This document shows positions 11,746 to 43,139 of a stretch of 64,000 nt of DNA, piece after piece; position 1 is the stretch's first letter, and the number at the start of each line of letters is the position of its first letter. A model generated the notes under the pieces. It did no database searches. It saw only the letters and a list, made by a program, of their open reading frames with translations, and was not told where the DNA came from. Source of the DNA: an uncultured Eubacteriales bacterium (lineage in GTDB: Bacteria > Bacillota > Clostridia > Christensenellales > Aristaeellaceae). The DNA lies in contig CACWHI010000001.1 in the NCBI GenBank assembly GCA_902760595.1, forward strand, positions 124,963 through 188,962, in the 5' to 3' direction. The translations under genes were made by a program, and so were the position numbers.

Positions 11746-12792
11746 GTGGAGCGCATTATTGAGGATCGGAAATACCTTGATCTCAAGGAATGCACGATGA
11801 GCCGTCTGCGGGAAAGCGAGCTCGATGAGCTGAAAAACCGGCTGACCGCGCAGAACGGGCAGAGCATATTCGGCCGCGGTTCATCTCAGTACTGGACCAA
11901 GGCTTATCAGTACTCCTATGATTACGCTGAACGGCGGAGCGAGGAGTGGCCCTCCCTGCCCAAGCTCCGCGCCGCGGTCAGGAACCGGGTGCCCATCGAG
12001 CTGCCGTTCGTGACCGAACGCGAGGAAGCCATGATCAAGCGGCTGCTGCTGTTTGGCGGCGTCACCCCGCTGTTTACGGAGGACGAGCTGGCAGCGGCCG
12101 ACTCGCTGGTCAAACGGCTCTGGTGCAGCTGCGTGCTGCGGGATAACGGGCAGCTCTTCGTCCGGCTTGCGGACGCGCTGATCAAGCCCATGCTCGCGGC
12201 GGTCGCGGACAACAGCTATCATGAGCTGCGCGCGAGGATGTTCGCCTTTTCCGCGACCCTTCACAGCATGGTCTACCTGCATGGCATGCTGTACGCGGAG
12301 CCGGTCATCGCGAACCTGACGGAGCGTCTGGTACCCGATCACGACGAGACGCATATCCGGCTTCTGTACCGCTACCTGAAGGCGGAGTTCGACTATTGCC
12401 TGGACAGCCAGGGAAATCTGGTACTGATTCACCCCGGACTGATCCATCCCGAGAGGATGCTCGCCTCGATCTCCAACGCGAAGTATCAGGCGACCGATTA
12501 TACCCGGGAGATGATCATCGGCGGTATGAGCGAGCTGCTCAAGGAGGAGTCGGCTGCTGAGGAGATCCTCCGCTCAGAGCTCGGGTTCGCGCTGCAGCCG
12601 GGCTATAACCCCGGCACCATGGTGAACGACGTGAAATTCCTGATCAAGCAGGGCGCGACCCATGAGCAGCTTTCCAGCCTGATCAGCGAAAAGCTCGCAG
12701 TCCGGATGACGCCGCAGATCGAAGCCGCCCTGAAGCGCGCGGAAACGGATACGGTCCGGTGGCAGAGCAGCGTCACCCGGAGACTGAACTGA
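11746..12792 (+). CDS. hypothetical protein (no recognisable domain)
   Basis: 348-codon ORF with coding-like composition, sandwiched by overlap between ligA and rluA. The start is uncertain: TTG at 11740, GTG at 11746 (8 nt after AAAGGA), or ATG at 11797. Confidence 0.45.
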   Translation: MERIIEDRKYLDLKECTMSRLRESELDELKNRLTAQNGQSIFGRGSSQYWTKAYQYSYDYAERRSEEWPSLPKLRAAVRNRVPIELPFVTEREEAMIKRLLLFGGVTPLFTEDELAAADSLVKRLWCSCVLRDNGQLFVRLADALIKPMLAAVADNSYHELRARMFAFSATLHSMVYLHGMLYAEPVIANLTERLVPDHDETHIRLLYRYLKAEFDYCLDSQGNLVLIHPGLIHPERMLASISNAKYQATDYTREMIIGGMSELLKEESAAEEILRSELGFALQPGYNPGTMVNDVKFLIKQGATHEQLSSLISEKLAVRMTPQIEAALKRAETDTVRWQSSVTRRLN

Positions 12793-13625
12793 TGCGCCTG
12801 TATACCGCCCGGATCCCGCAGCAGGTCGGCGAAAAGACCCTGGAAGGCTATCTGGCGCACGCTATGCCGCTGCTGCCGCAGTTTGTGATCAGGGACGCGT
12901 TCGCGCATCACGATGTCAAAATGGACGGGAAGCGCGTTGCGGCCGATCAGGCACCGGCCCCGGGCGCGGAGGTCAGGGTCTATACGCTTTGGGAGGCGGA
13001 GCTGCCTGTGGTCTATGAAGACGGCAACGTCCTCCTGATCAACAAGCCCGCGGGCATCAGCTGTGAAGACGACGGCCGCGGGGGAATGACGGTGCAGAGC
13101 CTTCTGGCGGGAAAGGCAGTGATCTGCCACCGCCTGGATAACCAGACCTGCGGCCTCCTGATCGCGGCCAGGAACGCGGAAACGGAAGCAGCGCTGCTGC
13201 AGGCGTTCAGAGACAGGACGCTGACGAAGCGCTACGAGTGCCTGGTGAAAGGCGTCTTGCGGCCTGCCGCGCAGACGGCGACCGCCTATATCCTGCGGGA
13301 TGAAAGCCTTGGCCGGATGCGCGTGGTCAGCCATGCTTCCCCGGAAGCCCGGCCGATCGCGACGGAATACGAGACGCTGGAAGAAAGCGACGGCATTTCG
13401 CGGCTCCTGGTGACGCTGCTGACCGGCAGGACGCACCAGATCCGCGCCCATCTGGCGGCGCTCCAGCATCCGATCCTCGGGGATGATGTATACGGGGACC
13501 GGGCCTTTAATCAGAGGAGAAATGTCAGGCGGCTGATGCTGTGCTCGACTGAACTGACCCTGAACGCGGGAGGCGTCCTGAGTTATCTGGACGGCCGCGT
13601 TTTCAGGATCAGCGCCCCTTTTTAA
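12792..13625 (+). CDS. RluA-family pseudouridine synthase
   Basis: HRLDNQTCGLLIAARN catalytic-Asp motif and an S4-like N-terminus. The start at 12792 overlaps the upstream stop as TGATG. Confidence 0.75.
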   Translation: MRLYTARIPQQVGEKTLEGYLAHAMPLLPQFVIRDAFAHHDVKMDGKRVAADQAPAPGAEVRVYTLWEAELPVVYEDGNVLLINKPAGISCEDDGRGGMTVQSLLAGKAVICHRLDNQTCGLLIAARNAETEAALLQAFRDRTLTKRYECLVKGVLRPAAQTATAYILRDESLGRMRVVSHASPEARPIATEYETLEESDGISRLLVTLLTGRTHQIRAHLAALQHPILGDDVYGDRAFNQRRNVRRLMLCSTELTLNAGGVLSYLDGRVFRISAPF

Positions 13626-13664
13626 CGTGACTGCGAACCAAACGACCCGGAAACAGGAGAAACT

Positions 13665-14492
13665 ATGGACAGGATCCGAATGATCGCGATGGATTTGGAC
13701 GGGACGCTGGTCCAGCAGGACGGTTCTGTCCTGCCCGATACCGTAAAAGCGCTGAAAGCCGCCTCGAAAAAGGGAATCATCATCGCGCTCGCCTCCGGCC
13801 GGTATCCGGAAAACGCGGGAACGATCATGCTTGACAACGGCCTGGAAGGGCCTGTGATGGGCGTGAACGGCGCGATCATCCAGGACCGGCCGATGGGCCG
13901 GACGCTGTACCTGCACATGATCCCGCGTGAGACGGCACTGGAGGCGCGGGCATGCCTGGATAGGTTAGGTGCCAGGTATATCCTGTTTTCGTACAAGCGC
14001 GTCACGACGAGTCACTTTGGCATGACCCACAGGTCGGAGATCAACGACGGACCGAGAATGGAACGTCTGGGCGGGATCAGCTTCGACCACGGCGCGGAGG
14101 CGGTAACGAAGGCGCTGATGACCGGCGTTTCCAAGATCTTCCTGCCGGACCAGCCGAATCTGGAAGCGATCGGGCGGGCGGTCCGGACCATTCCCCACCT
14201 GCTGGTCACACGCTCGAACAGCCGAAATATCGAACTGATGCCCGAGGGGATCCATAAGGGCCGGGGAATCGCGGAGCTGGCCAGGTGGCTGGGGATTCCG
14301 CTGAGCGCCATCATGGCCTTCGGTGACGAGGAAAACGACCTGCCCATGCTCACCACGGTCGGTTACGGCTTTGCCATGGGCAACGCGCCGGAACACGTCA
14401 AGGCGCAATGCGCCTATACGACGGACAGCTATGACAGGAACGGCATTGGGAACGCGATCGAGCGGTATGTGCTCAATGGAGGTCAGGAATGA
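13665..14492 (+). CDS. Cof-type HAD-IIB family hydrolase
   Basis: MIAMDLDGTLV motif I (DxDGT) and the GDEENDLPML motif IV region. The RBS GGAGAA lies upstream. Confidence 0.75.
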   Translation: MDRIRMIAMDLDGTLVQQDGSVLPDTVKALKAASKKGIIIALASGRYPENAGTIMLDNGLEGPVMGVNGAIIQDRPMGRTLYLHMIPRETALEARACLDRLGARYILFSYKRVTTSHFGMTHRSEINDGPRMERLGGISFDHGAEAVTKALMTGVSKIFLPDQPNLEAIGRAVRTIPHLLVTRSNSRNIELMPEGIHKGRGIAELARWLGIPLSAIMAFGDEENDLPMLTTVGYGFAMGNAPEHVKAQCAYTTDSYDRNGIGNAIERYVLNGGQE

Positions 14493-15127
14493 AAAAAGGC
14501 GTGATCTTTGATCTGGACGGTACACTGCTCCAGACCTTGCCGGATATCGGCGGCAGCATGAACCGGGTGCTCAGGCGCTTCGGCCTCCCGGAGCATCCGC
14601 TGGAGGCCTATAAGACCATGGTGGGCAACGGCGCGTGGAACCTGACTAAGCGGGCTGTCGGGGAGCGACAGGATCTGGCTGACCAGGTGTACCCGGCGTA
14701 CCGTGAAGAGTATTCCGCCCATACCTGTGACCAGACGTATATCTATCCCGGGATCTCCGAAATGATCAGGGAGCTTGGCAGGCGCGGGATCCTGCTGACA
14801 GTATTCAGCAACAAGGACGATCCGGACGTGGCGATGGTCATCCACCATTATTTTCCGGACAAGCCCTTCACGCTGCTGAGGGGACGCATGGAGGGGGTGC
14901 CGATCAAGCCGGCTCCTGACGGCGCGCTGCTGATCACGGACAAGCTCGGGCTCTCTCCGGACGAGATCCTGTATGTGGGCGATACCGGCACGGATATGGA
15001 GTGCGGACGGAATGCGGGTATGGAGACGGTCGGCGTCCTGTGGGGGTTCCGCACGCGCGCGGAGCTGGAAGAAACAAAGGCCTGCCATATCATCGGCAAG
15101 CCTTCGGAGCTGCTGGCATTCATATAA
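14489..15127 (+). CDS. HAD-IA family hydrolase (phosphoglycolate phosphatase-like)
   Basis: MKKGVIFDLDGTLL motif I and the VGDTGTDMECGRNAG motif. The start overlaps the previous stop as ATGA. Confidence 0.75.
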   Translation: MKKGVIFDLDGTLLQTLPDIGGSMNRVLRRFGLPEHPLEAYKTMVGNGAWNLTKRAVGERQDLADQVYPAYREEYSAHTCDQTYIYPGISEMIRELGRRGILLTVFSNKDDPDVAMVIHHYFPDKPFTLLRGRMEGVPIKPAPDGALLITDKLGLSPDEILYVGDTGTDMECGRNAGMETVGVLWGFRTRAELEETKACHIIGKPSELLAFI

Positions 15128-17176: not shown

Positions 17177-18199
17177 TCAGCGTTTTCCCAGTTCGGTATC
17201 CGTTTCGGAAACCTTGCTGTGCTCCTTGATGTAATCGATGATCTCGTCAAGATAGCCGAAGGCGACGGCGACATAGCTGTCCGCCGCGCCGTAATAAACG
17301 GCGATGCGCCCTGTGGGCTCATCCTGCAGCGTGGCGCAAGGGAAGCAGACGTTCGGCACGAAGCCGCGCTCCTCATACCATTCTTCGGGCGTCAGCAGGT
17401 AGTTTTCACAGCGGTATTTGACCCGGGAGGGCTCGTCGATGTCCAGGATCGCGCCGCCGATGGAATACACATAGCCGTTGCAGGTGTTGGTCACGCCGTG
17501 ATAGAAGATCAGCCAGCCATCGCTGGTCTCGATTGGCGCGGCGCCGCCGCCGATCTTGAGGCCTTCCCACCAGTTGCCGCTGCGTGACATCACATGGCGG
17601 TGCCTGCCCCAATACACCAGGTCGGGGCTCTCGCTGATATAGATGTCCCCAAAGGGCGTGTGGCCGCTGTCGGAGGGACGGGAAAGCATCATGAATTTCC
17701 CGTTGATCTTCCGGGGGAAGAGGACGGCGTTGCGGTTGAAGGCCAGGAAGGGATTCTCCAGCCGGGTGAAGGTTTTGAAATCCGTCGTCCGGGCCAGGCC
17801 GATCGCCGCGCCGTAAAAGTCCTGGCACCACATGATATAATAGGTATCCTCCACCTTGACCAGGCGGGGGTCGTAGGCATAGACGGGCATGAACGGCTTG
17901 CCGTCTTCATCGACAAAGTGGATTTTTTCCTTCTCGAATTCCCAGTGGATGGCGTCTTTGCTGTGGCCGAGGTAAATGTAGGATACGCCGTTGGTCTGCT
18001 CGCCGCGGAATACGCCGATGAAGCCATCCTGGTACGGCATGACCGCGGAATTGAAGATACGGGCTACGCCCTCCACGGGATTGCGGTGGATGATGGGGTT
18101 GTCGGAATATCGCCAGAGGGGAGAATTCCTCCAGCCCTCCGGCTTGTCCTGCCAGGGAATGTTGGGAAGCGCGTTCGCGATCATCTTGTACTTGCCCAT
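17177..18199 (-). CDS. glycoside hydrolase family 130 (mannoside phosphorylase family)
   Basis: The 340-aa length and sequence (NPIIHRNPVEG..., DTYYIMWCQDFYGAAIGLARTTDFKTF..., GGAAPIETSDGWLIFYHGV) are typical of GH130 phosphorylases. The start was moved to MGKYKM. Confidence 0.75.
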   Translation of the reverse strand: MGKYKMIANALPNIPWQDKPEGWRNSPLWRYSDNPIIHRNPVEGVARIFNSAVMPYQDGFIGVFRGEQTNGVSYIYLGHSKDAIHWEFEKEKIHFVDEDGKPFMPVYAYDPRLVKVEDTYYIMWCQDFYGAAIGLARTTDFKTFTRLENPFLAFNRNAVLFPRKINGKFMMLSRPSDSGHTPFGDIYISESPDLVYWGRHRHVMSRSGNWWEGLKIGGGAAPIETSDGWLIFYHGVTNTCNGYVYSIGGAILDIDEPSRVKYRCENYLLTPEEWYEERGFVPNVCFPCATLQDEPTGRIAVYYGAADSYVAVAFGYLDEIIDYIKEHSKVSETDTELGKR

Positions 18200-19105: not shown

Positions 19106-20127
19106 AGCAGCAGAGTGCAGTCCCCGAAGGAGAAGAAGCGATATCGCTTCTCGACGGCTTCTTCGTAGAGCTGCAGCGCCTGTTCGCGCCCGATGAACGC
19201 GCTGACCAGCATCAGGAGCGTGCTTTCGGGAAGGTGAAAGTTGGTCAGCAGGACGTCTGTCGCCTTGAAGGCCACGCCCGGCTTGATGAAAATGCTGGTC
19301 GTGCCGGAACCCGGATGAACGATCCCGTGCTCGTCCGCGACGGTTTCCAGCGTGCGGACGCTGGTGGTGCCGATACATACGATCCGTCCGCCGTTGGCGC
19401 GGGCGCGGTTGATCCGCTGCGCGGCGTCCTCGGTGACCATATAGTATTCTTCGTGCATCAGATGGTCTTCGACGTTTTCCGCCTTGACCGGACGGAAGGT
19501 GCCGAGGCCGACGTGCAGGAGAACGGGAACGATATCTACCCCCATCTGGCGGATGGTATCCAGCAGCTCGGGGGTAAAGTGAAGCCCTGCGGTCGGCGCG
19601 GCGGCGCTGCCCTCCTGCCTGGCGTACACGGTCTGGTATTGTTCGGGATCCTCAAGACGCTGGTGGATGTAGGGCGGCAGAGGCATCTGGCCCAGCTCGT
19701 CCAGCACGGCCTCAAAAACGCCGTCATAGGTAAAGCTGACGATCCTTCCGCCGGACGATGTCGTTTCCCCGATCATGGCACGCAGCCGACCCTGGCCGAA
19801 GCTGACCGCGGTGCCGGCCTTGAGGCGCCGGCCGGGCTTGACCAGCGTTTCCCAGGTGTCGGTTGAGATACGCTTGAGCAGCAGTATCTCCACGGGGATC
19901 CCGCTGCTGTCCTTGACGCCGATCAGGCGGGCGGGGATGACGCGGGTCTCGTTGACGACCATGACATCGTTGGGCTTCAGAAAGGATGGAAAATCCCGGA
20001 ATATGCGGTCCTGCGTCGCGCCGGTCGCGCGGTCATAGACGAGCATCCGGGCGCTGTCACGGGGCTGGGCGGGCGTCTGCGCGATCAGCTCAGGCGGCAG
20101 CTCGTAATAGAAATCAGAAGTCTTCAT
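19102..20127 (-). CDS. queA: S-adenosylmethionine:tRNA ribosyltransferase-isomerase
   Basis: [30 protein letters not shown] is the canonical QueA N-terminus. Confidence 0.9.
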
Positions 20128-20139
20128 CGTGTTTTCCTG

Positions 20140-21195
20140 TCAGAATAAAGTCGTCTGCTGCATGGCGGGCGGATTCTCGCCGCCCTGCGCGCTTTCGGGA
20201 GCGGTCCGGCCCATGTGCGCGTAGGCGGCGGGGGTGAGCACCCGGCCGCGGCTGGTGCGCATGATGAAGCCGAGCTGCAGCAGATAGGGCTCGTATACGT
20301 CCTCGATCGTGCCTGCATCCTCACCGGTGGAAGCGGCCAGGGTATCCAGGCCTACGGGGCCGCCGCCGAACTTGTCGATCATGGTCAGCAGCACGTTCCG
20401 ATCTACCCGGTCGAGCCCAAGCTCGTCCACATTCAGCTGATTGAGCGCCTCCTGGGCGATACGCAGGTCGATGTGCCCGTCGCCCTTGACTTGGGCGAAG
20501 TCGCGCACGCGCTTGAGCATGCGGTTGGCGATACGCGGCGTGCCGCGGCTGCGGCTGGCGATCTCATAGAGCCCTTCCCTGTCGCACTGCACGTTCAGGA
20601 TCTTCGCGGAGCGCGCGACGATGGAAGCCAGCTCGTCGGTATTGTACATTTCCAGGCGGAAGGTGATGCCGAAGCGGTCGCGCAGGGGAGCGGAGAGCAT
20701 TCCTGCGCGTGTCGTCGCGCCGATCAGCGTGAATTTGGGCAGATCCAGGCGCAGCGAGCGCGCCGTCGGCCCCTTGCCGATCATGATGTCGAGCGCGTAG
20801 TCCTCCATCGCGGAATACAGCACCTCTTCCACCGCCCTGGACAGCCGGTGGATCTCGTCGATGAACAGGATATCGCCCTGATTCAGGTTGGTCAGGATGG
20901 AGGCCAGATCGCCGGGCCGGTCGATGGCGGGGCCGCTGGTGATGCGGATGTTCTGTCCCATCTCAGCGGCGACGATACAGGCCAGCGTCGTTTTGCCCAG
21001 GCCGGGAGGGCCGTAGAGCAGAATGTGGTCCAGCGCGTCGTGCCGTCCGAGCGCGGCTTCGATATAAACGCTCAGGTTATGCTTGATCTGCTCCTGCCCG
21101 ACATATTCCTTCAGCTGCTTGGGGCGCAGCGTGCCTTCCGTGTCGCTGTCCTCCGTGCGTACGGAGGCGGACATCAGGCGGTCGAATTCACTCAT
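20140..21195 (-). CDS. ruvB: Holliday junction branch migration helicase RuvB
   Basis: [22 protein letters not shown] Walker A motif and the RuvB-specific sequence. Gene order is ruvC-ruvA-ruvB. Confidence 0.9.
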
Positions 21196-30992: not shown

Positions 30993-31011
30993 GATCCAGG
31001 CCTCATATATA

Positions 31012-31043
31012 AGGCGCTGTCCGGAATCGGGCAGCGCCTTTTA
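31012..31043 (+). terminator. rho-independent terminator after thrS
   Basis: AGGCGCTG-tccggaatcggg-CAGCGCCT followed by TTTT, 20 nt after the thrS stop. Confidence 0.65.
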
Positions 31044-31108
31044 ACATTGCCGTAACATTTTTTTAATCAATAATTAAGAAATGCGCAACATGTCAATGCC
31101 GCTCTTTC

Positions 31109-31137
31109 TTGTTCCGAAAACCCCTGAGTGCTATAAT
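31109..31137 (+). promoter_or_regulatory. putative promoter of the SPFH / membrane / TIR module (extended -10)
   Basis: TTGTTC (31109-31114), a 17-nt spacer, then TGcTATAAT (-10 at 31132-31137). The leader is about 25 nt to the RBS GCAGGAGG and the ATG at 31166. Confidence 0.45.
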
Positions 31138-31165
31138 AGAAACAACACGCGCAGGAGGTTTCCGA

Positions 31166-32836
31166 ATGAGCAAGTTTATGATCGAATGCCCCAAATGTCA
31201 TAAGTATAACGAAGCTGCCAACGGACTGTTCGCGCGGCGGAGCATCCCGTGCCCCTGCGGCAATATCATCAACGTCAGGAACGATAAGATCGTCACCCGC
31301 GTGTGCCCGAACTGCGGCAACACGGTCGTTTACGACCAGTCGGAGGGGACGAAGGCCCGATGCCCGGTCTGCGGCAAGCAGCTGGTTGCGGACGGCGACA
31401 TGAAAAAGCTGATCCATTTCCCGTGCAGAACGTGCGGATGCCTGCTGCAGGCGGATAAAACCGCGGACAGGATCACCTGCGCGCTGTGCGGGGCCGAAAA
31501 CGATATAAAGGCCGAGGTCAGGAAGGCCCAGCTCCGGGAAAAGGGAGAGCCTGCGACCATCGAATACCGCGGCGACCGCAAGACGCTCGTCTGGCGTCAC
31601 CCGATGACAGAGTTCGTCTTTGGGTCTCAGCTGATCGTGCGCGAGGGGCAGGAAGCGATCTTCCTCCGCAACGGGGAAGCGCTCGATTCCTTTGGCCCCG
31701 GCAGGCATACGCTCGAGCTTCCCGCGATGCCCAGGCTGCAGGAGAAGCTGGGCGGCACCGGAGACATACCATTCCGCGCGGAAGTATATTTCGTCAATAT
31801 GCTGACGGTCTTCAACCAGAAATGGGGGACGCCCAACAAAGTCTCCTTCCGGGACCCGGACACGAATATCCCGTTTGATATCGGCGCGTCGGGCGGCTTC
31901 AGCATGCGGATCACGAACCCGCGCAAGGTGCTCGGGCGGATCGTCGGCACGCAGGACGATCTGAAGTCGGAAGATCTGTTTGATATGAACAACGGCTACT
32001 TCCGCCAGACGATCCTCGGCCGGATCAAGGGAAGGATGGCGCAGTGCATCCAGAGTGAAATGATCTCTGTGTTCGAGCTGGATTCCCATCTTGACGTGAT
32101 CTCCCGTTCCATCCAGGACGCGGTGAATGAGGACCTGACTGATTACGGGATCGAGCTCCCGGACTTTACCGTCGTCAATATCGTCGTCCCGGAGGACGAC
32201 CCGAATTATCGGGAACTGAAGTCCATACACGCCAAGAAAGTGCTGGATATGGAGAAGGCCAGGCTGGAGGTCAACGTGCACCGCGTCAGGAATGAGAGTA
32301 TCGTGGCTGACGCGGAAACCGAAGCCGAAGCCCTGCGCATAAAGAAAAAAGCGGAGGCCGACGCCTATGGCTATCAGGCTACCGCGGAAGCCAGGGAAAT
32401 GCGTGAGAAGGGATATACCTACCAGCAGGAGACCCAGCGGAAAACCGCCATGGCCGCGATGGAAAACGGCGGAGGCGCAGCGGCGGCAGGCGGCATCGCG
32501 GCGGATATGCTGCAGCTGGGCGTGGGGCTCAGCGCTGCAAAACAGGTTTCTGAGCTGACCAAGGCCGCTTTACAGCCTGAGGCCGACTCAGCTGAAGGCT
32601 GGGACTGCGCCTGCGGCCAGAAGGGGAACCGCCTCGCCTTCTGCCCGAATTGCGGCGCGAAAAAGCCGGTGTCCGCGGTCACATGGGACTGCGCCTGCGG
32701 CCAGAGAGGAAATACCCTGATGTACTGCCCGAACTGCGGTGCCAGACGTCCCGGCGCGGATACCTGGGACTGCAGCTGCGGCCAGACCGGAAATAAACTG
32801 CCCTTCTGCCCGTCCTGCGGCAGAAAGCGTCCCTGA
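31166..32836 (+). CDS. SPFH/band-7 domain protein flanked by multiple zinc ribbons (3 N-terminal, 3 C-terminal)
   Basis: N-terminus CPKC..CPC, CPNC..CPVC, CRTC..CALC. A central SPFH-like region (LVWRHPMTEFVFGSQLIVREGQEAIFLRNGE...FRAEVYFVNM...) is followed by a coiled coil. The C-terminus has a triple WDCxCGQxGNxLxFCPxCGxxRP repeat. No TM helix is evident. The start was moved to the ATG at 31166, which follows the RBS. Confidence 0.7.
   Translation: MSKFMIECPKCHKYNEAANGLFARRSIPCPCGNIINVRNDKIVTRVCPNCGNTVVYDQSEGTKARCPVCGKQLVADGDMKKLIHFPCRTCGCLLQADKTADRITCALCGAENDIKAEVRKAQLREKGEPATIEYRGDRKTLVWRHPMTEFVFGSQLIVREGQEAIFLRNGEALDSFGPGRHTLELPAMPRLQEKLGGTGDIPFRAEVYFVNMLTVFNQKWGTPNKVSFRDPDTNIPFDIGASGGFSMRITNPRKVLGRIVGTQDDLKSEDLFDMNNGYFRQTILGRIKGRMAQCIQSEMISVFELDSHLDVISRSIQDAVNEDLTDYGIELPDFTVVNIVVPEDDPNYRELKSIHAKKVLDMEKARLEVNVHRVRNESIVADAETEAEALRIKKKAEADAYGYQATAEAREMREKGYTYQQETQRKTAMAAMENGGGAAAAGGIAADMLQLGVGLSAAKQVSELTKAALQPEADSAEGWDCACGQKGNRLAFCPNCGAKKPVSAVTWDCACGQRGNTLMYCPNCGARRPGADTWDCSCGQTGNKLPFCPSCGRKRP
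32600..32833 (+). repeat. three tandem in-frame 69-84-nt repeats encoding zinc-ribbon modules
   Basis: TGGGACTGCGCCTGCGGCCAGA...TGCCC.AA.TGCGG... occurs three times. It encodes WDCACGQKGNRLAFCPNCGAKKP, WDCACGQRGNTLMYCPNCGARRP and WDCSCGQTGNKLPFCPSCGRKRP. Confidence 0.8.
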
Positions 32837-32863
32837 CGGCGGACCTACGGGAGGAAACGAGCA

Positions 32864-33364
32864 ATGAGAACAAACGGTAAGAAGCTGCTTGCCTTTCTAT
32901 TGGGCTTTCTGGCGATCAACGCGCTGATCCTGCTGCTCCCCTTCAGGAAGACAGCGCTGTTCATTGTGGTCTGGGCTGTACTGGCTGTGGCTTGCCTTTC
33001 TGCCGGTATCGTGATGTTGTTTAAAGGAGCCGCGAAAGGGAAAAAGGCCGGGACCAGCGACAGACAGATCGCGGCCCGGACGGCGGATATGAAGAGCCTG
33101 AGGGACAAAGCCCAGGCGCTCTGCGCATCCATTCAGGATCCTGGCAACGCGAAGGCGCTGAAAGAGCTTGCGGACGAGCTGCGCTATTCGGACCCGGTGT
33201 CCGGCGCCGCGACGGCTTCCTATGAGAAGCGGATCGATACGCTGCTTGAAAGCATCGCCCATCATGACGACGCAGCGGAGCGGAGCGAGCTGATCCGCCG
33301 CGCGACGGCCCTGGTCAGAGAGCGCGCGTCCGCTGCGAAAACGAATAAATCACTGAATTCCTGA
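32864..33364 (+). CDS. small membrane protein (2 predicted TM helices plus a cytoplasmic helical tail)
   Basis: LLAFLLGFLAINALILLL and LFIVVWAVLAVACLSAGIVMLF hydrophobic segments. The RBS GGGAGGA is present, and the gene sits 27 nt after the SPFH gene. Confidence 0.5.
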   Translation: MRTNGKKLLAFLLGFLAINALILLLPFRKTALFIVVWAVLAVACLSAGIVMLFKGAAKGKKAGTSDRQIAARTADMKSLRDKAQALCASIQDPGNAKALKELADELRYSDPVSGAATASYEKRIDTLLESIAHHDDAAERSELIRRATALVRERASAAKTNKSLNS

Positions 33365-33381
33365 TCGGAGGAACGGGAAGA

Positions 33382-36300
33382 ATGGCTTTTATCAAGTGCA
33401 AGATCTGCGGCGGCGACGTCGAGGTGGTCCAGGGGAAAAACTGGGGAACATGCGACTACTGCGGCTCCCGCGTGACCTTCCCCAAGGATTCGACGGAGCA
33501 GCGCATCAACCTTCTCAACCGCGCGGACGCCTTCCGGCGCCAGAACGAGTTTGACAAGGCGATCAGCGCGTACGAGCGGATCCTGGAGGACGACCAGACG
33601 GACGCCGAGGCGCACTGGGGCGCGGCGATTTCCCGCTTTGGCATTGAGTACGTCGAGAATCCGGTCACCTTCGAGCGGAAGCCGACGCTGCACCGCCTGC
33701 AGACGACCTCCATCCTCGCCGACGAGGACTATAAGGCGGCGATCGAGAACGCCCCGGACGATGAGACGCGGAAGCTGTATGAGGCCCAGGCCCAGGAGAT
33801 CGCGGATATCCAGAAGAAGGTCCTGGAACAGAGCGAGCGGGAGGATCAGTTCGATATCTTTATTTCATATAAGGAATCGGACGCCAACGGCGAACGCACC
33901 CGGGACAGCGTGATCGCCTTCCAGATCTATACCGAGCTGGTCAAGGAGGGCTACAACGTATTCTTCGCCAAGGAGACGCTCAAGGGGCGGCTGGGCGACG
34001 AATACGAGCCGATCATCTTTTCCGCCCTGCGCTCCTCCCAGGTCATGATCCTGATCGGCACGAAGAAAGAGTACTTTGAGGCGGAATGGGTGCGCAACGA
34101 ATGGACGCGCTACCTGGACCTCATGCGCCAGGAAAAGGATAAGCCCCTGGATGACCAGATCCCGCGGCAGCTGATCCCCTGCTACCGGGATATGGACGCA
34201 TATGAGCTGCCCGTGGAGCTCAACATGCTCCAGAGCATGAATATGAATTCCATCTCCTTCCTCCAGGACCTGCTGTCCGGGATCAGGAAGATCATGGAAG
34301 GCGGCAACCAGGAGACCTATAAGTATAAAACGGACGAGATCTCCCGCCTGCTGCAGCGCGCCATGAACCAGGCGGAGCTGGGTGAGTTCGGCCGCGCCGA
34401 TTCCCTGGCGGAAAAGGTCCTGGAGTCCGACCCGAACAACGCGACGGCGCAGATGGTCAAGCTGCTGGTGCAGCTGAAGGTCAATACGCCGGACGAGCTG
34501 GTCAAGCAGAAGCAGCCCCTGACGCACAACCGCCTGTACATCATGGCCTGCCGGAACGCCAAGGGCGCGCAGAAGAAGCGTTACGAAGGCTATAACAAGA
34601 AGATCATCGCCAATATCGAGGCGGCGGAGAACCAGAAGAAGCTGGACACGATCCTGAAAAAGATCGAGGGGATCAAAGCGCGCAGCAAGAAGCTCGCCGC
34701 CGACGATGACGAAGGCTTCCGCAAGCTGAGCGAGGAGGTCCGCGAGCAGGTCACGGCGTTGGAGCAACTGGGGATTTTCGGCGGAGCGGATGAGAAGGCC
34801 AAAGAGTTCGCGAAGCTTGCGGATGATATCGATCACGACCTGAAGGTGCGGATCGAGGACCGCCAGCGCCGTATTGAGGAAGAAAAGCAGCGCCAGCAGG
34901 CGATCCGCGAAGAGGAAGCCCGGAAAAAGGCGGAAAAGGAAAAGGCGGAGCGCGAGGCGAAGGAAGCCGCCGAAAAGGCGGAAAGGGAACGCCTGGCCAA
35001 GCTTCGCCGCCGGAAGGCGAGAAAGCGTCTGGCGGCCTTCCTGGCCGTTCTGGCGATCGCGGCGGCCATCACCGCCTATAAGCTGTATTTTGAAAACAAA
35101 CTGGCCTATGCCGCGGCTGTGGATACCATAGAGCAGTCCACGGAGAGCCGTCAGCTGGATTATGCGGAGACGATCCTCGACCGGCTGGGCAGCGACTATG
35201 AGGATGTGAGCGCGCGCAAACAGCAGGTATCCGCTGATCGGCGCTTCCTCAGCAATTACCATCGCCAGGCATATGCTGATTATATGGCGCTGGACGAAAA
35301 GTACCGCACGCCCGGGAAGCTTGACTGGTATGAGAAAGAATACCAGAGCGGTCTCAGCATGATCTCCGGTCAGCAGTTCGAAAACGCGATCGCGCTGCTG
35401 AAGAACATCGATTACTACAAGGACGCGCCGGACCAGGTCCGAAGGGCGTATCTGCTGATGGGCGACGCGGCCATGGCGCGTGATCAGTACACGGACGCGG
35501 CGTCTGCCTATCGTTCCGCCGGGGATTATCAGGATGCCGCCAGGAAGATCAGCCAGACGGAGGCCGCGATCCTGTTTGCGCAGGGAAGGTACGCGGACGC
35601 CTATGCCGCGTACAAGGCGCTGGCCGGTGAATACTTCACGCCCAAGCATAAGGCGTGGTACGACCAGCAGTACGATAACGCGAAAAAGTACCTGGACAGC
35701 GGAGAGTACCAGAAGGCGATCGAAGCCTTCGACGCGATCAGGTATTACAGCGAAACGGGCCGCAATGCCGCAGAGCAGCTGCAGAACGCGCATTACAGCT
35801 ACGCCGCGCAGTCGAAGGATCCGGCAGTTGCGCGCGAACAGTACGCGCTGGCGGGAAATTACCGCGACAGCGAAAGCCTGATCAGGCAGCTGGACGCGGA
35901 CGATCTGTTCGAGGCCGGCAGGTACGAGCAGGCCTACCAGCTCTATCAGACGCTTGACGAAAAATACCAGACGCATAAAGCGGATTATACCGCCTGGTTT
36001 GACGCGGCCAACAAGGCGATGACAGAGAACGGCGATCTTGAGCTGGCGATCAGGAGCTTCCGGAACATCACATATATGGACAGCGCCGAGTACCCGGTGA
36101 AGCAGAGGCTGCAGACCGCTTACCTGACCTACGCGCAGTCGCTCCTGCAGCCGACGGGGAAGATTGATGAAACCGCCGTCACTAGAGCGAAGACCTATTT
36201 CGACCTGGCAGGCGTTTCCGGCGATGACCAGGTGAGCCGCTATTATTACGAGACCGGCGTCAAAGCGCTGGAGAATGACGATGTGCGGACGGCTGAAAAG

Positions 36301-36963
36301 GCGTTTGCCGGCGCGGAGGGATATCCTGACACGGATCAGCTGATCAAAGCGCACTATTATGAATCGGCGAAAACGGCCATGGCGGGGGATAACGCCGAGG
36401 AAGCGGCGGAGCTGCTGCGGCGTGCCGGCGGTTATCAGGACGCCGACGCGCTTCTGAAACAGCTGGAGGCTTATGTGAACGCGAAGGAGCTGCTGAAGCA
36501 GCAAAAGATGATCGAAGCCATGCGCGCTTTCACGGAAGCCGGCGACTGTATGGACGCGCCGACACTGGCGCAGCGCTGCGGGGAGCTGGTATATAACGGG
36601 GCCATGAAGCAGCCGCTCGCAGAGCGCCTGGAGATCCTCCGGCAGCTGGGCGATTTCAAGGACGCGCAGGCGCAGGTAAAAGCCGCGGAGGACGCCTACG
36701 AGCAGGCGGAGCAGGCGTACAGCGCCGGTCAGTACGCAGAGGCTGCACGCCTGTTTGAATCGCTCGACAACTACAGGGAAGCAAAATCAAAGCTGGATCT
36801 GAGCCTATACTGCTATGCCGGCGAGCTGCTGATCAAAGAGGATTACGCAGCTGCGTTGGACATATATGAATCCCTTGGCGATTATCTGAACAGCCGCAGC
36901 AATGCAGCCACCTGCCAGGCAAAGCTCGCGGAGTCTCAGCAAGGAAGTGAAAACGGCGACTGA
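33382..36963 (+). CDS. zinc-ribbon / TIR-domain protein with a single TM helix and a C-terminal TPR-like repeat domain of about 630 aa
   Basis: N-terminus CKIC..CDYC. The TIR region is DIFISYKESD...SSQVMILIGTKKEYFEAEWVRNEW, with the S.WC..E[LW] segment retaining Glu. A KE-rich coiled coil ends in LRRRKARKR, followed by the TM helix LAAFLAVLAIAAAITAYKLYF (about nt 35010-35080). The remainder is Y/A/D/Q-rich 35-80-aa repeats. The RBS GGAGGAA is present. Confidence 0.7.
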   Translation: MAFIKCKICGGDVEVVQGKNWGTCDYCGSRVTFPKDSTEQRINLLNRADAFRRQNEFDKAISAYERILEDDQTDAEAHWGAAISRFGIEYVENPVTFERKPTLHRLQTTSILADEDYKAAIENAPDDETRKLYEAQAQEIADIQKKVLEQSEREDQFDIFISYKESDANGERTRDSVIAFQIYTELVKEGYNVFFAKETLKGRLGDEYEPIIFSALRSSQVMILIGTKKEYFEAEWVRNEWTRYLDLMRQEKDKPLDDQIPRQLIPCYRDMDAYELPVELNMLQSMNMNSISFLQDLLSGIRKIMEGGNQETYKYKTDEISRLLQRAMNQAELGEFGRADSLAEKVLESDPNNATAQMVKLLVQLKVNTPDELVKQKQPLTHNRLYIMACRNAKGAQKKRYEGYNKKIIANIEAAENQKKLDTILKKIEGIKARSKKLAADDDEGFRKLSEEVREQVTALEQLGIFGGADEKAKEFAKLADDIDHDLKVRIEDRQRRIEEEKQRQQAIREEEARKKAEKEKAEREAKEAAEKAERERLAKLRRRKARKRLAAFLAVLAIAAAITAYKLYFENKLAYAAAVDTIEQSTESRQLDYAETILDRLGSDYEDVSARKQQVSADRRFLSNYHRQAYADYMALDEKYRTPGKLDWYEKEYQSGLSMISGQQFENAIALLKNIDYYKDAPDQVRRAYLLMGDAAMARDQYTDAASAYRSAGDYQDAARKISQTEAAILFAQGRYADAYAAYKALAGEYFTPKHKAWYDQQYDNAKKYLDSGEYQKAIEAFDAIRYYSETGRNAAEQLQNAHYSYAAQSKDPAVAREQYALAGNYRDSESLIRQLDADDLFEAGRYEQAYQLYQTLDEKYQTHKADYTAWFDAANKAMTENGDLELAIRSFRNITYMDSAEYPVKQRLQTAYLTYAQSLLQPTGKIDETAVTRAKTYFDLAGVSGDDQVSRYYYETGVKALENDDVRTAEKAFAGAEGYPDTDQLIKAHYYESAKTAMAGDNAEEAAELLRRAGGYQDADALLKQLEAYVNAKELLKQQKMIEAMRAFTEAGDCMDAPTLAQRCGELVYNGAMKQPLAERLEILRQLGDFKDAQAQVKAAEDAYEQAEQAYSAGQYAEAARLFESLDNYREAKSKLDLSLYCYAGELLIKEDYAAALDIYESLGDYLNSRSNAATCQAKLAESQQGSENGD

Positions 36964-37026
36964 GGAGAACACGGACCCTGGCAGGGGTAATCCAAACAGT
37001 ATGTGTAAAAGGAGACTGAGCAGACA

Positions 37027-40946: not shown

Positions 40947-41510
40947 TTAATCGCTGTCCGGTCCGGTCTGGCCGAGCTCCCAATGGAGGCGGCAGAGGCT
41001 TGTATAGCTCTCGTTCCCGCCGAGTACGACCTGCTCGCCGGTCTTGATGACCTTTCCGTTCAACAGTCGCGCGTTGAAGGTCGCTTTGCGTCCGCACCAG
41101 CAGATGGTCTTGACCTCCTCAATGGAGTCCGCCCAGGCCATCAGCCATTTGCTGCCTTCAAAGAAGTTGCCCTTGAAATCCGCGCGCAGACCATAGGCGA
41201 CAACGGGCACGTTGTCGTGATCAACGATATGCACCAGCTGTTCCACCTGCGCCTTGGTCAGAAACTGGGCCTCGTCCACGATGAGACAGGCATAGTCCCG
41301 GACGTTGATCTGATCGAGCTCCTCGATATAGGCGCACGGGGCGGAGAGGCCGCACCTGGACCCGACGATGCGTGCGCCGTCGCGCGTATCGAGACGGGGC
41401 TTCAGGATCAGGGCCTTCTGGCCTCTTTCCTGGTAATTGTACTGGACCATGATCGCGTTGGCGGTTTTGCTGGATCCCATCGCGCCGTAACGGAAGTAGA
41501 GCTTGGCCAT
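40947..41510 (-). CDS. tdk: thymidine kinase
   Basis: YGAMGSSKTANAI P-loop and a C-terminal zinc ribbon (CWCGRKATFNAR...C); 187 aa. Confidence 0.85.
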   Translation of the reverse strand: MAKLYFRYGAMGSSKTANAIMVQYNYQERGQKALILKPRLDTRDGARIVGSRCGLSAPCAYIEELDQINVRDYACLIVDEAQFLTKAQVEQLVHIVDHDNVPVVAYGLRADFKGNFFEGSKWLMAWADSIEEVKTICWCGRKATFNARLLNGKVIKTGEQVVLGGNESYTSLCRLHWELGQTGPDSD

Positions 41511-41530
41511 TGTGCAGTCTCCTCATGGAA

Positions 41531-41563
41531 AGAGGCTGCTCATCGCAGCCTCTTTAATTCGTT
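41531..41563. terminator. hairpin between tdk and the upstream peptidoglycan-binding gene (possible terminator or attenuator)
   Basis: AAAGAGGCTGC-tcatc-GCAGCCTCTTT stem-loop about 25 nt downstream (minus sense) of the 41586 gene end. The U-tract is weak. Confidence 0.35.
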
Positions 41564-41585
41564 GTTTGTTGCGCCGCTGATCCGA

Positions 41586-42977
41586 TCAGTCGAGATTCAG
41601 CTTGTGGTAGAGGGCGGCGAAGGTGTTATAGCCGACCTTGCCATCCTGCTTCAGTCCGGCTTCCTTCTGGAACTGCTTGACAGCGGTTTCGGTCTGCTTG
41701 CCGAACTTGCCATCGATGTCGCCGAGATCGATCATGTGCAGCTGATACAGCAGGTTCTGCAGGTTCGTGACCGCGTAGCCGGAATCGCCGCGCTTCAGGG
41801 TCTTGTACACCGCGCCGGTGGTCGGATCGACGAAGTCGTCGGAGGCCTGGCCGCCCTGGGAGAGATCGACGTCCATCAGCTTGGCCCAGGTCGCGGCGCC
41901 GATGATGCCGTCAGCCTTGAGGCCTTTGTTGGTCTGGAAGAGCTTCACAGCCGCGAGGGTCTTGCTGCCGAACACACCGTCGGCAGAACCGGTCATGGCG
42001 CCAGCGGAGATCAGGTAGTTCTGAGCGCTGCGTACATACTGGCCGTGGCTGCCGTACTTGAGCTTCGGACGGTCATAGGGAGAGGTGGAGGTACCATCCA
42101 GTTCATTGATGGCTTCTTCATAGCTCTCGCCGGCCATGCAGGCTTTGGTGTTGGCGTCCAGCCGCCCGGTCGTGTTGATCTTGTTCTTCTTCTGGAAATC
42201 GTACAGGGCCTTGTAGGTGGCGTCATCGAAGTAGCCGATGTTCGTGATGGCGGACATATAGTTGTCATCCTTCAGCATCTGCTGGAGAATATAGACGTCA
42301 TAGCCGCGCATGCCGGAGCCCAGGGTACGGCGGATCTTCTTGGACTTGCTCCAGTAAGAGCCGGGGGAAGACTCTGCCTTTTTCAGGGCGGTCCAGGTCT
42401 TTTCGCCCACGACGCCGTCCGCGCTCAGACCGACAGCCGCCTGGAAGGCCTTAACGGCTTCCTTGGTGGTATTGTCATAGGTCTGGTCGAACACCTTGTT
42501 GGGGTTCAGGAAGTAAAGCTTCTGGAGCATCTTCTGAACCTCGCCGACGCTGGGACCCTTATCACCGGGACGGATGGTATTGAAGCCGACGGTCGCGATG
42601 ACGGTGTCGGATTCATCCTTGATCTCCACGTCGTCGACCTTGAAATCGCTCTTTTTCATGGAGTCGGACGCGACCAGCTTGGCCCAGGTGTTGCCGCCGA
42701 TTTTGCCGTCGGCCTTCAGGTTGTTGCGCTTCTGGAAAGCGACAACAGCCTTGTACATACCGGAACCGAAACTGCCATCGATGTTGCCGGTATAGTACTC
42801 ATAGTAGGCAAGCCGGGTCTGCATGTACTTGATGTCGTTGTCCGCGCCATCCGGGAAGGTGTCAGTTTTATCCTTCATGCCGCGCTTCAGAACGTGGTCA
42901 TAGGTTTCCGCGCCGGCCACGGCGGAGACGAGAAGGGTCAGAAGCAATACCAGTGCAATCCAGGTAAATTTCTTCAT
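41586..42977 (-). CDS. secreted protein with about six tandem peptidoglycan-binding (PG_binding_1) repeats
   Basis: Signal peptide MKKFTWIALVLLLTLLVSAVAGA. Repeated GxxVxxLQxxL...DGxFGxxTxxAVxxFQxxxGLxxDGxxGxxTW units occur six times; no catalytic domain was recognised. Confidence 0.7.
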   Translation of the reverse strand: MKKFTWIALVLLLTLLVSAVAGAETYDHVLKRGMKDKTDTFPDGADNDIKYMQTRLAYYEYYTGNIDGSFGSGMYKAVVAFQKRNNLKADGKIGGNTWAKLVASDSMKKSDFKVDDVEIKDESDTVIATVGFNTIRPGDKGPSVGEVQKMLQKLYFLNPNKVFDQTYDNTTKEAVKAFQAAVGLSADGVVGEKTWTALKKAESSPGSYWSKSKKIRRTLGSGMRGYDVYILQQMLKDDNYMSAITNIGYFDDATYKALYDFQKKNKINTTGRLDANTKACMAGESYEEAINELDGTSTSPYDRPKLKYGSHGQYVRSAQNYLISAGAMTGSADGVFGSKTLAAVKLFQTNKGLKADGIIGAATWAKLMDVDLSQGGQASDDFVDPTTGAVYKTLKRGDSGYAVTNLQNLLYQLHMIDLGDIDGKFGKQTETAVKQFQKEAGLKQDGKVGYNTFAALYHKLNLD

Positions 42978-43139
42978 AGCGTAATTACCTCCATTCAGGA
43001 TTGTGAGGCAAGTATAGCATCAATTGTTTGCTAATGTGTTACGAGTTCATGTTTGAAACGTTAATTTCAAGCGAAAAATGTAAAACGAAAAAACGAAGAA
43101 GGATATAAAAACTGCTCTGTGTCAGTCATAATTCCGCAA

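Follow-up and report, generated by a model that had tools for sequence, protein, structure and literature searches.

The locus considered here is a cassette of three genes in a 64,000-nucleotide (nt) stretch of DNA (hereafter the window; contig CACWHI010000001.1) from an uncultured Eubacteriales bacterium of the family Aristaeellaceae. Positions 31008-36963 hold, in this order and on the plus strand, to which all features of the window described below belong, the terminator of thrS, a promoter, a ribosome-binding site and three co-directional open reading frames (ORFs; 31166-32836, 32864-33364 and 33382-36963) with 27-nt and 17-nt gaps between them, and the trio is followed by a GlpA-like oxidoreductase cluster. 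Gene 1 encodes an SPFH protein with zinc ribbons, gene 2 a small membrane protein and gene 3 a membrane-spanning TIR protein. An original prediction, made from the sequence alone, had drawn this layout with the same gaps, had held that none of the three genes is housekeeping and had proposed a novel membrane-associated immune or signalling system. The ORF coordinates agree with that layout, the trio falls in no characterised housekeeping pathway, and, as set out below, hundreds of Clostridia species of the gut and rumen have it too.

Gene 3 (33382-36963) encodes a protein of 1193 amino acids that, according to Pfam, an AlphaFold2 (AF2) model and a transmembrane (TM) scan, is a single-pass, receptor-like TIR protein with the order zinc ribbon, tetratricopeptide repeat (TPR) helices, TIR domain, stalk, single TM helix and TPR-like C-terminus. 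Its N-terminal module (33382-33840) consists of a Cys4 zinc ribbon (residues 1-33) and of TPR helices, a beta-hairpin and a helical bundle (residues 39-153), the hairpin carrying the conserved motif GIEYVExP...PTxHR. The TIR domain follows at residues 159-305 (33856-34296). Residues 159-255 match TIR_2 (PF13676) with 37.6 bits against a 28-bit cutoff, homologs of gene 3 score 43-54 bits, and Foldseek superimposes the domain with probability 1.00 on TIR-STING (6wt6), SPARTA TIR-APAZ, Hydra TRR-2, Roq1 and MyD88, with root-mean-square deviations of about 3-4 Å for most of them over ~150 residues. A sequence search of the PDB with the N-terminus of this TIR protein returned designed TPR proteins only, and therefore a TIR-only profile was needed; its best PDB match is the chicken TLR15/TLR2 TIR domain (7ylf), and it aligns the family motif WVxNEW (WVRNEW in the window) to WCLMEL of L6, WCLNEL of SNC1 and WCQYEL of Toll-like receptors (TLRs). 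In the profile alignment E240 (GAA codon, 34099-34101), a candidate catalytic residue, stands at the canonical position of the catalytic glutamate, and it is invariant in a 41-sequence alignment. The catalytic role of the equivalent position we take to be established for SARM1 and plant TIRs; at the level of the domain, then, the TIR of gene 3 has the features of enzymatic TIRs, and cleavage of nicotinamide adenine dinucleotide (NAD+) is its predicted activity. In the AF2 model of residues 1-470 (predicted local distance difference test, pLDDT, 85) the TIR domain is succeeded by further TPR-like helices and then by the long helix of the stalk, which together with the K/E-rich coiled-coil sequence occupy residues 319-545 (34336-35016). 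A hydropathy scan places the single TM helix at residues 550-568 (35029-35085), preceded by RRRKARKR, and the remaining ~625 amino acids (35086-36960), TPR-like and marked by GDYxDA motifs, are predicted by topology to be extracytoplasmic. The earlier description of this protein as a transmembrane TIR-repeat protein is thus half right: profile and fold searches both find the TIR fold with its catalytic-position glutamate, and there is a TM helix, but the protein has one TIR domain, and the repeats are TPR-like and C-terminal.

Gene 1 (31166-32836; 556 amino acids) is predicted from Pfam and fold to be a soluble protein built from three zinc ribbons, an SPFH domain, a coiled coil, a low-complexity segment and three more zinc ribbons, resembling YdjI/SamI. 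It matches Band_7_1 (PF13421) with E = 5.5e-40 over residues 161-363 of the 575-amino-acid ORF, which are residues 142-344 when counted from ATG 31166 (31589-32197), and its 24 conserved cysteines make Cys4 ribbons, three at either end of the protein, which gives the total of six stated in the original prediction. The N-terminal ribbons (31166-31495; Cys 8/11/29/31, 47/50/66/69 and 87/90/105/108) appear as beta-hairpins in the AF2 model, and all 12 cysteines are invariant across 57 homologs; more than 2700 homologs of gene 1 were found. The C-terminal ribbons (32597-32833), recognised from their tandem repeats and conserved cysteines and following the pattern WDCxCGxxGNxxxFCPxCGxKKP, are coded by 81-84-nt tandem DNA repeats (32590-32833) whose products vary from three to seven copies among the homologs. 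Between the two sets, the AF2 model (pLDDT 73) shows the SPFH domain, a long helix at residues 346-414 (32201-32407, placed by AF2 secondary structure and pLDDT) and, 3' of it, a Gly/Ala-rich disordered linker at residues 435-476, ahead of the ribbons. The helix, of ~70 residues, is of the type that forms the wall of SPFH cages and was profile-aligned to Erlin-1, and Foldseek returned prohibitin, stomatin, erlin, HflK/C, QmcA and flotillin with E = 6e-9 to 2e-6 over 240-345 columns. Gene 1 accordingly shares the SPFH and wall-helix fold of the scaffolds that form cages with clients, such as HflK/C-FtsH, QmcA-YbbJ, stomatin, prohibitin, erlin and flotillin, and the logic that we propose for the cassette, with a membrane client enclosed or controlled by its scaffold, would be theirs as well. 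Unlike them, gene 1 has neither an N-terminal membrane anchor nor an NfeD partner, a hydropathy scan having found no TM helix or hydrophobic segment in it; it carries six zinc ribbons, and its oligomerisation is putative. Several metagenome loci (L081, L082, L092, L120, L130, L133, L138, L139, L153 and others) have TIR genes linked to shorter variants of the SPFH protein, of ~380-430 amino acids and with E ~1e-60 against that of the window; part of the zinc ribbons is apparently missing from them.

Gene 2 (32864-33364) encodes 166 amino acids with two TM helices in the TM scan (32885-32941 and 32957-33013) and a cytosolic helical tail, in keeping with the small membrane protein that had been predicted. 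It matches no family in Pfam, NCBIfam or PADLOC. The alignment of homologs shows invariant R/D/P/R/K/K positions in the tail and the motif YSDPVS, which in the window reads RYSDPVS (33182-33202). Every homolog has four TM helices, and the copies in the two syntenic relatives discussed below are 226 amino acids long; relative to all of them, the window gene bears an in-frame deletion of ~66 amino acids that has removed TM3 and TM4. Since at least eight contigs, coming from independent samples, carry the identical short form, it is fixed in the species and no assembly error.

Evidence that these genes belong together comes from their linkage across species. A scan anchored on the SPFH gene, with one genome per species, gave more than 590 matches, of which 80 loci from 80 species were kept. 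They come nearly all from gut and rumen anaerobes (Lachnospiraceae, Oscillospiraceae, Ruminococcus, Acutalibacteraceae, Christensenellales and Erysipelotrichales), the set also holding one metagenome-assembled genome (MAG) labelled Spirochaetales and one labelled Bacteroidales. A gene 2 homolog lies directly 3' of the SPFH gene in 62-63 of the 80 loci, and TIR homologs are present in 66-70; the TIR genes, 55 upstream and 51 downstream, are on the strand of the SPFH gene in 106 cases out of 106. Where at least 5 kb are available on both sides of the SPFH gene, a TIR gene is found in 32 of 33 loci, and the lone apparent exception has a weaker TIR match by clustering. When the anchor is reversed to the N-terminal module of the TIR protein, 35 metagenome loci are 12 kb or longer, and 32 of these have an SPFH gene on the same strand. 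Clustering of all flanking genes of the 80 loci disclosed no fourth conserved family. The association of SPFH protein, gene 2 and TIR protein is tight, bidirectional and independent of the genomic neighbourhood, and the co-occurrence of the three homologs, on which the original prediction had staked its case, is borne out from both anchors.

The TIR proteins themselves make up a large family of variable architecture. The N-terminal module of ~420 amino acids is found, at E <= 1e-30, in 3740 representatives of 50%-identity clusters among 1.84 billion; the proteins range from 483 to 3073 amino acids, and the module is always N-terminal. A search for fusions of the zinc ribbon/TPR module to other effector domains showed it almost always in company with TIR (215 of 224 ORFs), two TIR-deleted paralogs excepted. 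In these two (L130:19433-20977 and L158:841-1860) the zinc ribbon is joined straight to the post-TIR helical region; the former runs on into a TM helix and a sensor domain, the latter is short and soluble with no TM helix, and they could be decoys or regulators. In the fully flanked loci the number of TIR genes is one in 17 loci, two in 9, three in 5 and five in 1. What differs among paralogs is above all the C-terminus: among 101 sampled, 46 have DUF6273, 20 RCC1-like propellers, 13 TPR, 6 LRR_5 and 5 LRR_8, the last two being leucine-rich repeats (LRRs) of BspA type, and rarer ends are Listeria-Bacteroides repeats, MORN and F5/8-type C domains. The C-terminus of the window protein, shared by only 9 of the 80 SPFH-anchored loci, is in this variable 'sensor' position of the family. 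A strong TM helix is present in ~63% of 182 complete paralogs and in none of the rest. Of the single-TM paralogs, 89 of 90 have an excess of K/R on the N-terminal flank of the helix (6.2 vs 1.9 residues), and therefore the TIR domain is predicted, by the positive-inside rule, to be inside and the variable domain outside; four proteins (L082, L157, L072 and L066) have the explicit order TIR-TM-LRR.

One of these outer domains may be actively diversified. DUF6273 has a C-type-lectin-like fold and is a receptor-binding domain of gut phages diversified by diversity-generating retroelements (DGRs; PMC10743442; 10.1101/2024.10.15.618418). In locus L005, a DUF6273-type TIR paralog (11952-14537) has at its 3' end ~120 nt that pair with a copy 3 kb downstream (17544-17661), which is rich in Asn codons and translates to WWLRSPGTNQDNAANVNNDGSLNNNNVNNDSGCVRP. 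The mismatches concentrate on the adenines of the copy (17 of 29 A positions vs 28 of 107 others; Fisher p = 0.0016), and an RVT_1 reverse transcriptase (RT; 19324-20388) lies 1.7 kb beyond this template-like repeat (TR). Direct repeats of 129 nt (14556-14684 and 20726-20854) flank the segment of recombinase, TR and RT, as if it were an inserted element. From these sequences, some non-A mismatches notwithstanding, a DGR that targets the TIR receptor is likely. The cassette family thus resembles the variable proteins of DGRs ('tentaclins', Mtd-like) in that ~45% of the sampled TIR paralogs end in DUF6273 and in the TR and RT of L005; it differs from them in that the window protein is TPR-like with no DUF6273 and the DGR linkage is seen in the one locus L005 only. 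Repeats in L059 were rejected as a template/variable repeat (TR/VR) pair, being paralog similarity, and the window locus has no TR/VR-like repeats, its repeats being the zinc-ribbon tandems and weak TPRs only.

In the lineage of the window, the cassette is a vertically inherited, fixed chromosomal feature. The two nearest relatives, whose TIR proteins are 58% and 65% identical to that of the window and 150-200 amino acids longer, have the trio at the same site in the order thrS, SPFH gene, gene 2, TIR gene and DAO-Pyr_redox-DUF1667-HAD. Independent samples yielded at least eight contigs with the exact trio of 556, 166 and 1193 amino acids, and every contig with an identical thrS carries it. 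The G+C content of the cassette (59.7%) matches that of the window (60.1%); this match and the synteny in the relatives led us to reject recent horizontal transfer into the window. At the same time, the cassette evolves far faster than its neighbours. Measured against the two syntenic relatives, the flanking housekeeping proteins are 81-93% identical (a metallophosphoesterase excepted, at 67-72%) and the N-terminal module of the TIR protein 78-84%, followed by the SPFH protein with 64-73%, gene 2 with 50-65%, the TIR stalk with 53-57% and, lowest, the TIR outer domain with 44-53%.

The transcription signals are consistent with a unit that has its own start. The gene upstream is identified as thrS by Pfam (tRNA-synt_2b, HGTP_anticodon and tRNA_SAD), and RNA folding places its intrinsic terminator at 31008-31045, a GC-rich hairpin of the 13-base-pair class (31008-31043) followed by UUUU, with -25.4 kcal/mol and z = -7.3; none of 200 shuffles was equally stable. 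The promoter recognised in the sequence comprises a -35-like TTGTTC (31109-31114), a 17-nt spacer and the extended -10 element TGCTATAAT (31129-31137). The block TTTCTTGTTC..GTGnTATAAT is unchanged in both syntenic relatives (L163 and L165), in which the remaining intergenic spacer has diverged, and such a phylogenetic footprint is better evidence for a promoter than a consensus match by itself. Both the terminator just upstream and the cassette's own extended -10 promoter had been pointed out in the original prediction, and both hold. Conversely, TTG 31109 is discarded as the start of gene 1: this alternative ORF start overlaps the promoter, and ATG 31166, with AGGAGG (31153-31158) 7 nt to its 5' side, lines up with the ATG/GTG starts of the relatives. 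A second conserved block, (T/G)TAATCAA (window 31064-31070, ~40 nt 5' of the -35 element), is common to both syntenic relatives and could be an operator or an UP-like element. Downstream, Pfam identifies genes for DAO+BFD, Pyr_redox_2, DUF1667 and HAD proteins, and 3' of the HAD hydrolase a 683-amino-acid ORF (40983-43034) had no Pfam match at E <= 1e-5. No terminator was found between gene 3 and the DAO gene, the 63-nt gap (36964-37026) folding like its shuffles (z = -0.2), and therefore read-through into the DAO/Pyr_redox_2/DUF1667/HAD genes is possible. The gap stays short in the relatives (38-63 nt), so that co-transcription of the cassette and the GlpA-like cluster is possible in the lineage of the window.

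In some species, accessory genes that are not part of the core sit within the cassette on the same strand. A ribbon-helix-helix (RHH) protein of ~80 amino acids (CopG-like, GRTRNEI; family 3), absent from the window, is encoded directly upstream in 12 loci (e.g. L009:9702-9989) and is likely a dedicated regulator. Four of the 80 loci have an SIR2_2 gene (30.5 bits vs a 24.5-bit cutoff), without SLOG, between the TIR and SPFH genes (L039:8986-10008, L045:9127-9999, L049:15840-16757 and L070:2722-3723), an insertion that echoes the pairing of TIR and SIR2 in type I Thoeris. Small helical proteins of family 9 carry the motif RNxxIH (L025:2742-3215, L040:9547-9999, L042:8514-9149, L063:4066-4680 and L075:8614-9252), and further R-x4-H proteins (RNxxIH or RxxLAHG) are found in the cassette at L063:7198-7779, L058:3884-4435 and L074:12614-13555. 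One R-x4-H protein has a weak, below-threshold HEPN match (pEK499_p136, E = 1e-3); such proteins could be RNase effectors, and for family 9, with the RNxxIH motif and no Pfam match, the HEPN assignment is weak. DUF4365, a restriction-endonuclease (REase)-like domain, is wedged into the cassette in some species, and a Coprobacillus MAG has a DUF2971 protein between gene 2 and the TIR gene (L012:12469-13131) that matches the PADLOC candidate PDC-S31 with E = 1e-22. Accessory genes of all these kinds are typical of conflict systems. Serine recombinases occur in six loci.

The domains and folds, the topology, the invariant E240, the two-way linkage, the sensor-swapped paralogs and the fast evolution of the outer domain computed here lead us to infer a joint function for the three proteins. 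We hold, with moderate confidence, that they constitute one membrane-associated TIR signalling complex, in which an SPFH scaffold and sensor domains control NAD+ cleavage that is switched by clustering, probably for defence or growth arrest. Gene 3 would be sensor and enzyme at once, a type II single-pass protein whose ribbon, TPR and TIR parts face the cytoplasm while its variable C-terminal repeats are exposed outside. Gene 1 perhaps builds a ring or cage beneath the membrane, and gene 2 might tether this scaffold as YdjG and YdjH tether YdjI in Bacillus subtilis; the SPFH scaffold would then hold or concentrate the TIR receptors. Let us assume that a ligand, or a perturbation of the envelope, at the variable domain alters the packing of the receptors. 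The TIR domains might then self-associate and NAD+ cleavage would be turned on, resulting in NAD+ depletion or in a nucleotide signal, with growth arrest or another defensive response to phages or other invaders as the most likely output. Interaction of the three proteins, oligomerisation of the SPFH protein, NAD+ cleavage by the TIR domain, a trigger of this kind and a defensive outcome are presumed in this reading. Traits reminiscent of conflict count in its favour: the paralog arrays, the swapped sensors, the divergent ectodomain, the DGR-linked paralog and the embedded SIR2_2, HEPN-like, DUF4365, DUF2971 and RHH genes. A defence role is plausible.

A number of observations weigh against a defensive TIR complex of this kind. 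In the lineage of the window the cassette behaves as part of the core genome and at a housekeeping site, unlike a typical defence island, and in the flanks elsewhere PADLOC gave scattered single matches among 135 proteins, for which no baseline was computed. The three proteins have no match in PADLOC at E <= 0.1, even to its TIR models, and in NCBIfam sub-threshold noise only; in the minimal trio no separate effector can be recognised. Phage collections hardly contain the cassette: INPHARED gave no TIR match and remote SPFH matches only, and 3 of the 2.9 million contigs of IMG/VR match it. Since ~37% of the complete TIR paralogs have no TM helix, sensing is not exclusively extracellular. The window gene 2 is missing TM3-4, and the confidence of the SPFH model (pLDDT 73) is moderate. 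Of the novel membrane-associated immune or signalling system first proposed, what stands is a conserved and undescribed membrane-associated TIR system; the immune part is our inference, and the flanks elsewhere gave no clear enrichment of defence genes.

That the system is undescribed, as had been claimed, is in line with what we could find. Open-access papers and bioRxiv yielded no relevant description of SPFH/Band-7 proteins with a prokaryotic TIR, a systematic TIR survey of December 2025 mentions SPFH, Band_7 or flotillin neither in its text nor in four supplementary files, and PADLOC recognises none of the three proteins. A three-gene system of E. coli, Rst_2TM_1TM_TIR, has a parts list (2-TM, 1-TM and TIR) superficially like the trio. 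To our knowledge it is without an SPFH component; no sequence relationship to it was detected with PADLOC (0 matches), that system's own models not having been run.

Several other explanations must be weighed. The cassette might be an envelope-stress or membrane-homeostasis module, a relative of PspA-YdjGHI (SamGHI) without PspA, in which the state of the membrane would be monitored by the SPFH scaffold with its membrane partner and the TIR protein would be an adaptor or metabolic regulator in place of an immune effector. YdjI is a soluble SPFH protein having a low-complexity stretch as well as a C-terminal zinc finger, and it requires membrane partners (PMC8581546; PMC11237479); in B. subtilis these are YdjG and YdjH, which bring it to the membrane, where it recruits PspA (PMC8581546; PMC11237479; 10.64898/2026.02.06.704340), and YdjG also bears N-terminal zinc ribbons (PMC11237479). 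Gene 1 belongs to the same Band_7_1 family, has the YdjI layout of SPFH domain, helix, low-complexity linker and C-terminal ribbon, and like YdjI is without a membrane anchor and coded beside a membrane protein; the fixed, vertical, housekeeping-flanked cassette of the window lineage and flanks without a clear defence-island signal would also suit such a role. On the other hand, the SPFH protein of the cassette itself incorporates the ribbons as fusions (3+3), the conserved partners are TIR proteins, of which there is no report in the Psp literature (the 'TIR' of PMC11237479 is CesT/Tir and unrelated), and neither PspA nor a TPM protein (YdjH) nor a YdjG-like NTF2 partner is conserved in the 80 loci; no PspA-like gene lies between thrS and DAO. 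Gene 2, matching no family and having four, in the window two, TM helices and a helical tail, is not a YdjG (two zinc ribbons, NTF2-like domain and TM helix) or a YdjH (TPM). The PspA link was rejected on these grounds, so that of the analogy drawn in the original prediction only the SPFH protein survives, and we regard the cassette as resembling the YdjI scaffold in its working, not as a member of the PspA-YdjGHI system. The invariant catalytic-position glutamate, the arrays of paralogs with swapped domains, the DGR-linked paralog and the embedded SIR2, HEPN-like and REase genes would also be unexpected, and we consider envelope homeostasis an unlikely function.

The TIR proteins might instead sense the trigger and make a messenger of the cyclic ADP-ribose (cADPR) type or another derived from ADP-ribose (ADPR), as in Thoeris, with no depletion of NAD+ and with gene 2, possibly gated by the SPFH protein, as effector; the embedded SIR2 or HEPN-like proteins of some species would be effectors there. 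The cassette TIR shares the catalytic-position glutamate with Thoeris, TIR-SAVED and SPARTA, SPARTA TIR-APAZ is among its best structural matches, and, as in ThsB, the TIR protein itself bears the sensor region. Many validated Thoeris types join a TIR protein to TM-spanning effectors (10.64898/2025.12.03.692087), the cytosolic tail of gene 2 is basic with its invariant residues and YSDPVS, and the SIR2_2 gene between TIR and SPFH in four loci would fit as well. However, in place of SLOG, Macro or other known effectors the cassette has an SPFH protein and a 4-TM protein as its conserved partners; its TIR protein spans the membrane, has a large variable C-terminus and occurs in paralog arrays; and no clear defence-island enrichment was seen. 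The trio lies outside the definition of Thoeris, having no known effector domain and no match to ThsA, ThsB or any other PADLOC model, and the survey that defines the Thoeris types names no SPFH partner. Gene 2 has no recognisable ligand-binding fold, and a form of it minus two of four TM helices is fixed in the window species; we are doubtful of messenger signalling of this kind. The outer domains might also serve a non-immune recognition of surfaces, binding host glycans, dietary polymers or bacteria, with the TIR and SPFH proteins relaying to adhesion, aggregation or dormancy. BspA-type LRRs, Listeria-Bacteroides repeats, C-lectin-like DUF6273 and RCC1 propellers are typical surface-binding domains of Firmicutes, and both the nearly exclusive distribution in gut and rumen anaerobes and the core-like inheritance in the window lineage are as one would expect; but ~37% of the paralogs bear the same sensor domains without a TM helix, which would put them in the cytoplasm, and the embedded SIR2, HEPN-like and REase genes with the RHH regulator fit conflict systems better, which makes such a non-immune role quite improbable in our view. 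That unrelated genes merely share a transcription unit is hardly credible, given linkage above 90% in both directions in adequately flanked loci, strict co-orientation and recurrence across families and orders while the other neighbours vary.

Returning to the membrane-associated TIR complex that we prefer, a bolder form of it deserves mention. TIR domains are common to the innate immunity of animals, plants and bacteria, and TLRs associate with flotillin/raft microdomains. The bacterial TIR systems known to us are cytoplasmic. Like TLRs, the cassette's receptors would be single-pass proteins with variable ligand-binding repeats outside and the TIR domain inside; unlike TLRs, they are inverted, type II with an N-terminal TIR, the outer domain of the window protein is TPR-like and not LRR, and the LRRs of the family are BspA-type with no homology to TLR ectodomains. 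The resemblance is best described as analogy, not orthology, and the bacterial TIR probably acts as an enzyme and not as an adaptor. According to a survey of E. coli, bacterial TIR systems seem to lack the TM and LRR features known from TLRs (PMC11350192). We offer only as a tentative thought, and one with the chances against it, that the cassette might be a bacterial counterpart of TLR sensing, in which arrays of single-pass receptors with hypervariable outer domains (C-lectin-like, LRR, beta-propeller or TPR), diversified by a DGR at least once, detect phage or other foreign surfaces outside the cell and signal across the membrane to the catalytic TIR, organised and gated by a flotillin-like SPFH cage. 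If true, no earlier outside-in TIR immune receptor system would have been known from prokaryotes, and SPFH proteins would gain a new role.

Irrespective of these details, the cassette reveals that TIR proteins with exchangeable sensors, most of them membrane-spanning, make up a very large family (~3740 clusters at 50% identity), which in hundreds of Clostridia species of the gut and rumen is genetically tied to an SPFH scaffold. With it comes a testable model of an SPFH microdomain that controls a potentially lethal enzyme, and a possible route for the sensing of events at the cell surface. If the function turned out to be non-defensive, the TIR proteins would still be the first client, and the cassette the first context, of a YdjI-type SPFH protein outside the Psp system. 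As a new system of sensing or immunity in bacteria we consider the cassette a strong candidate; for major gut commensals, it points to determinants of phage-host or microbe-host interaction that belong to a new class.

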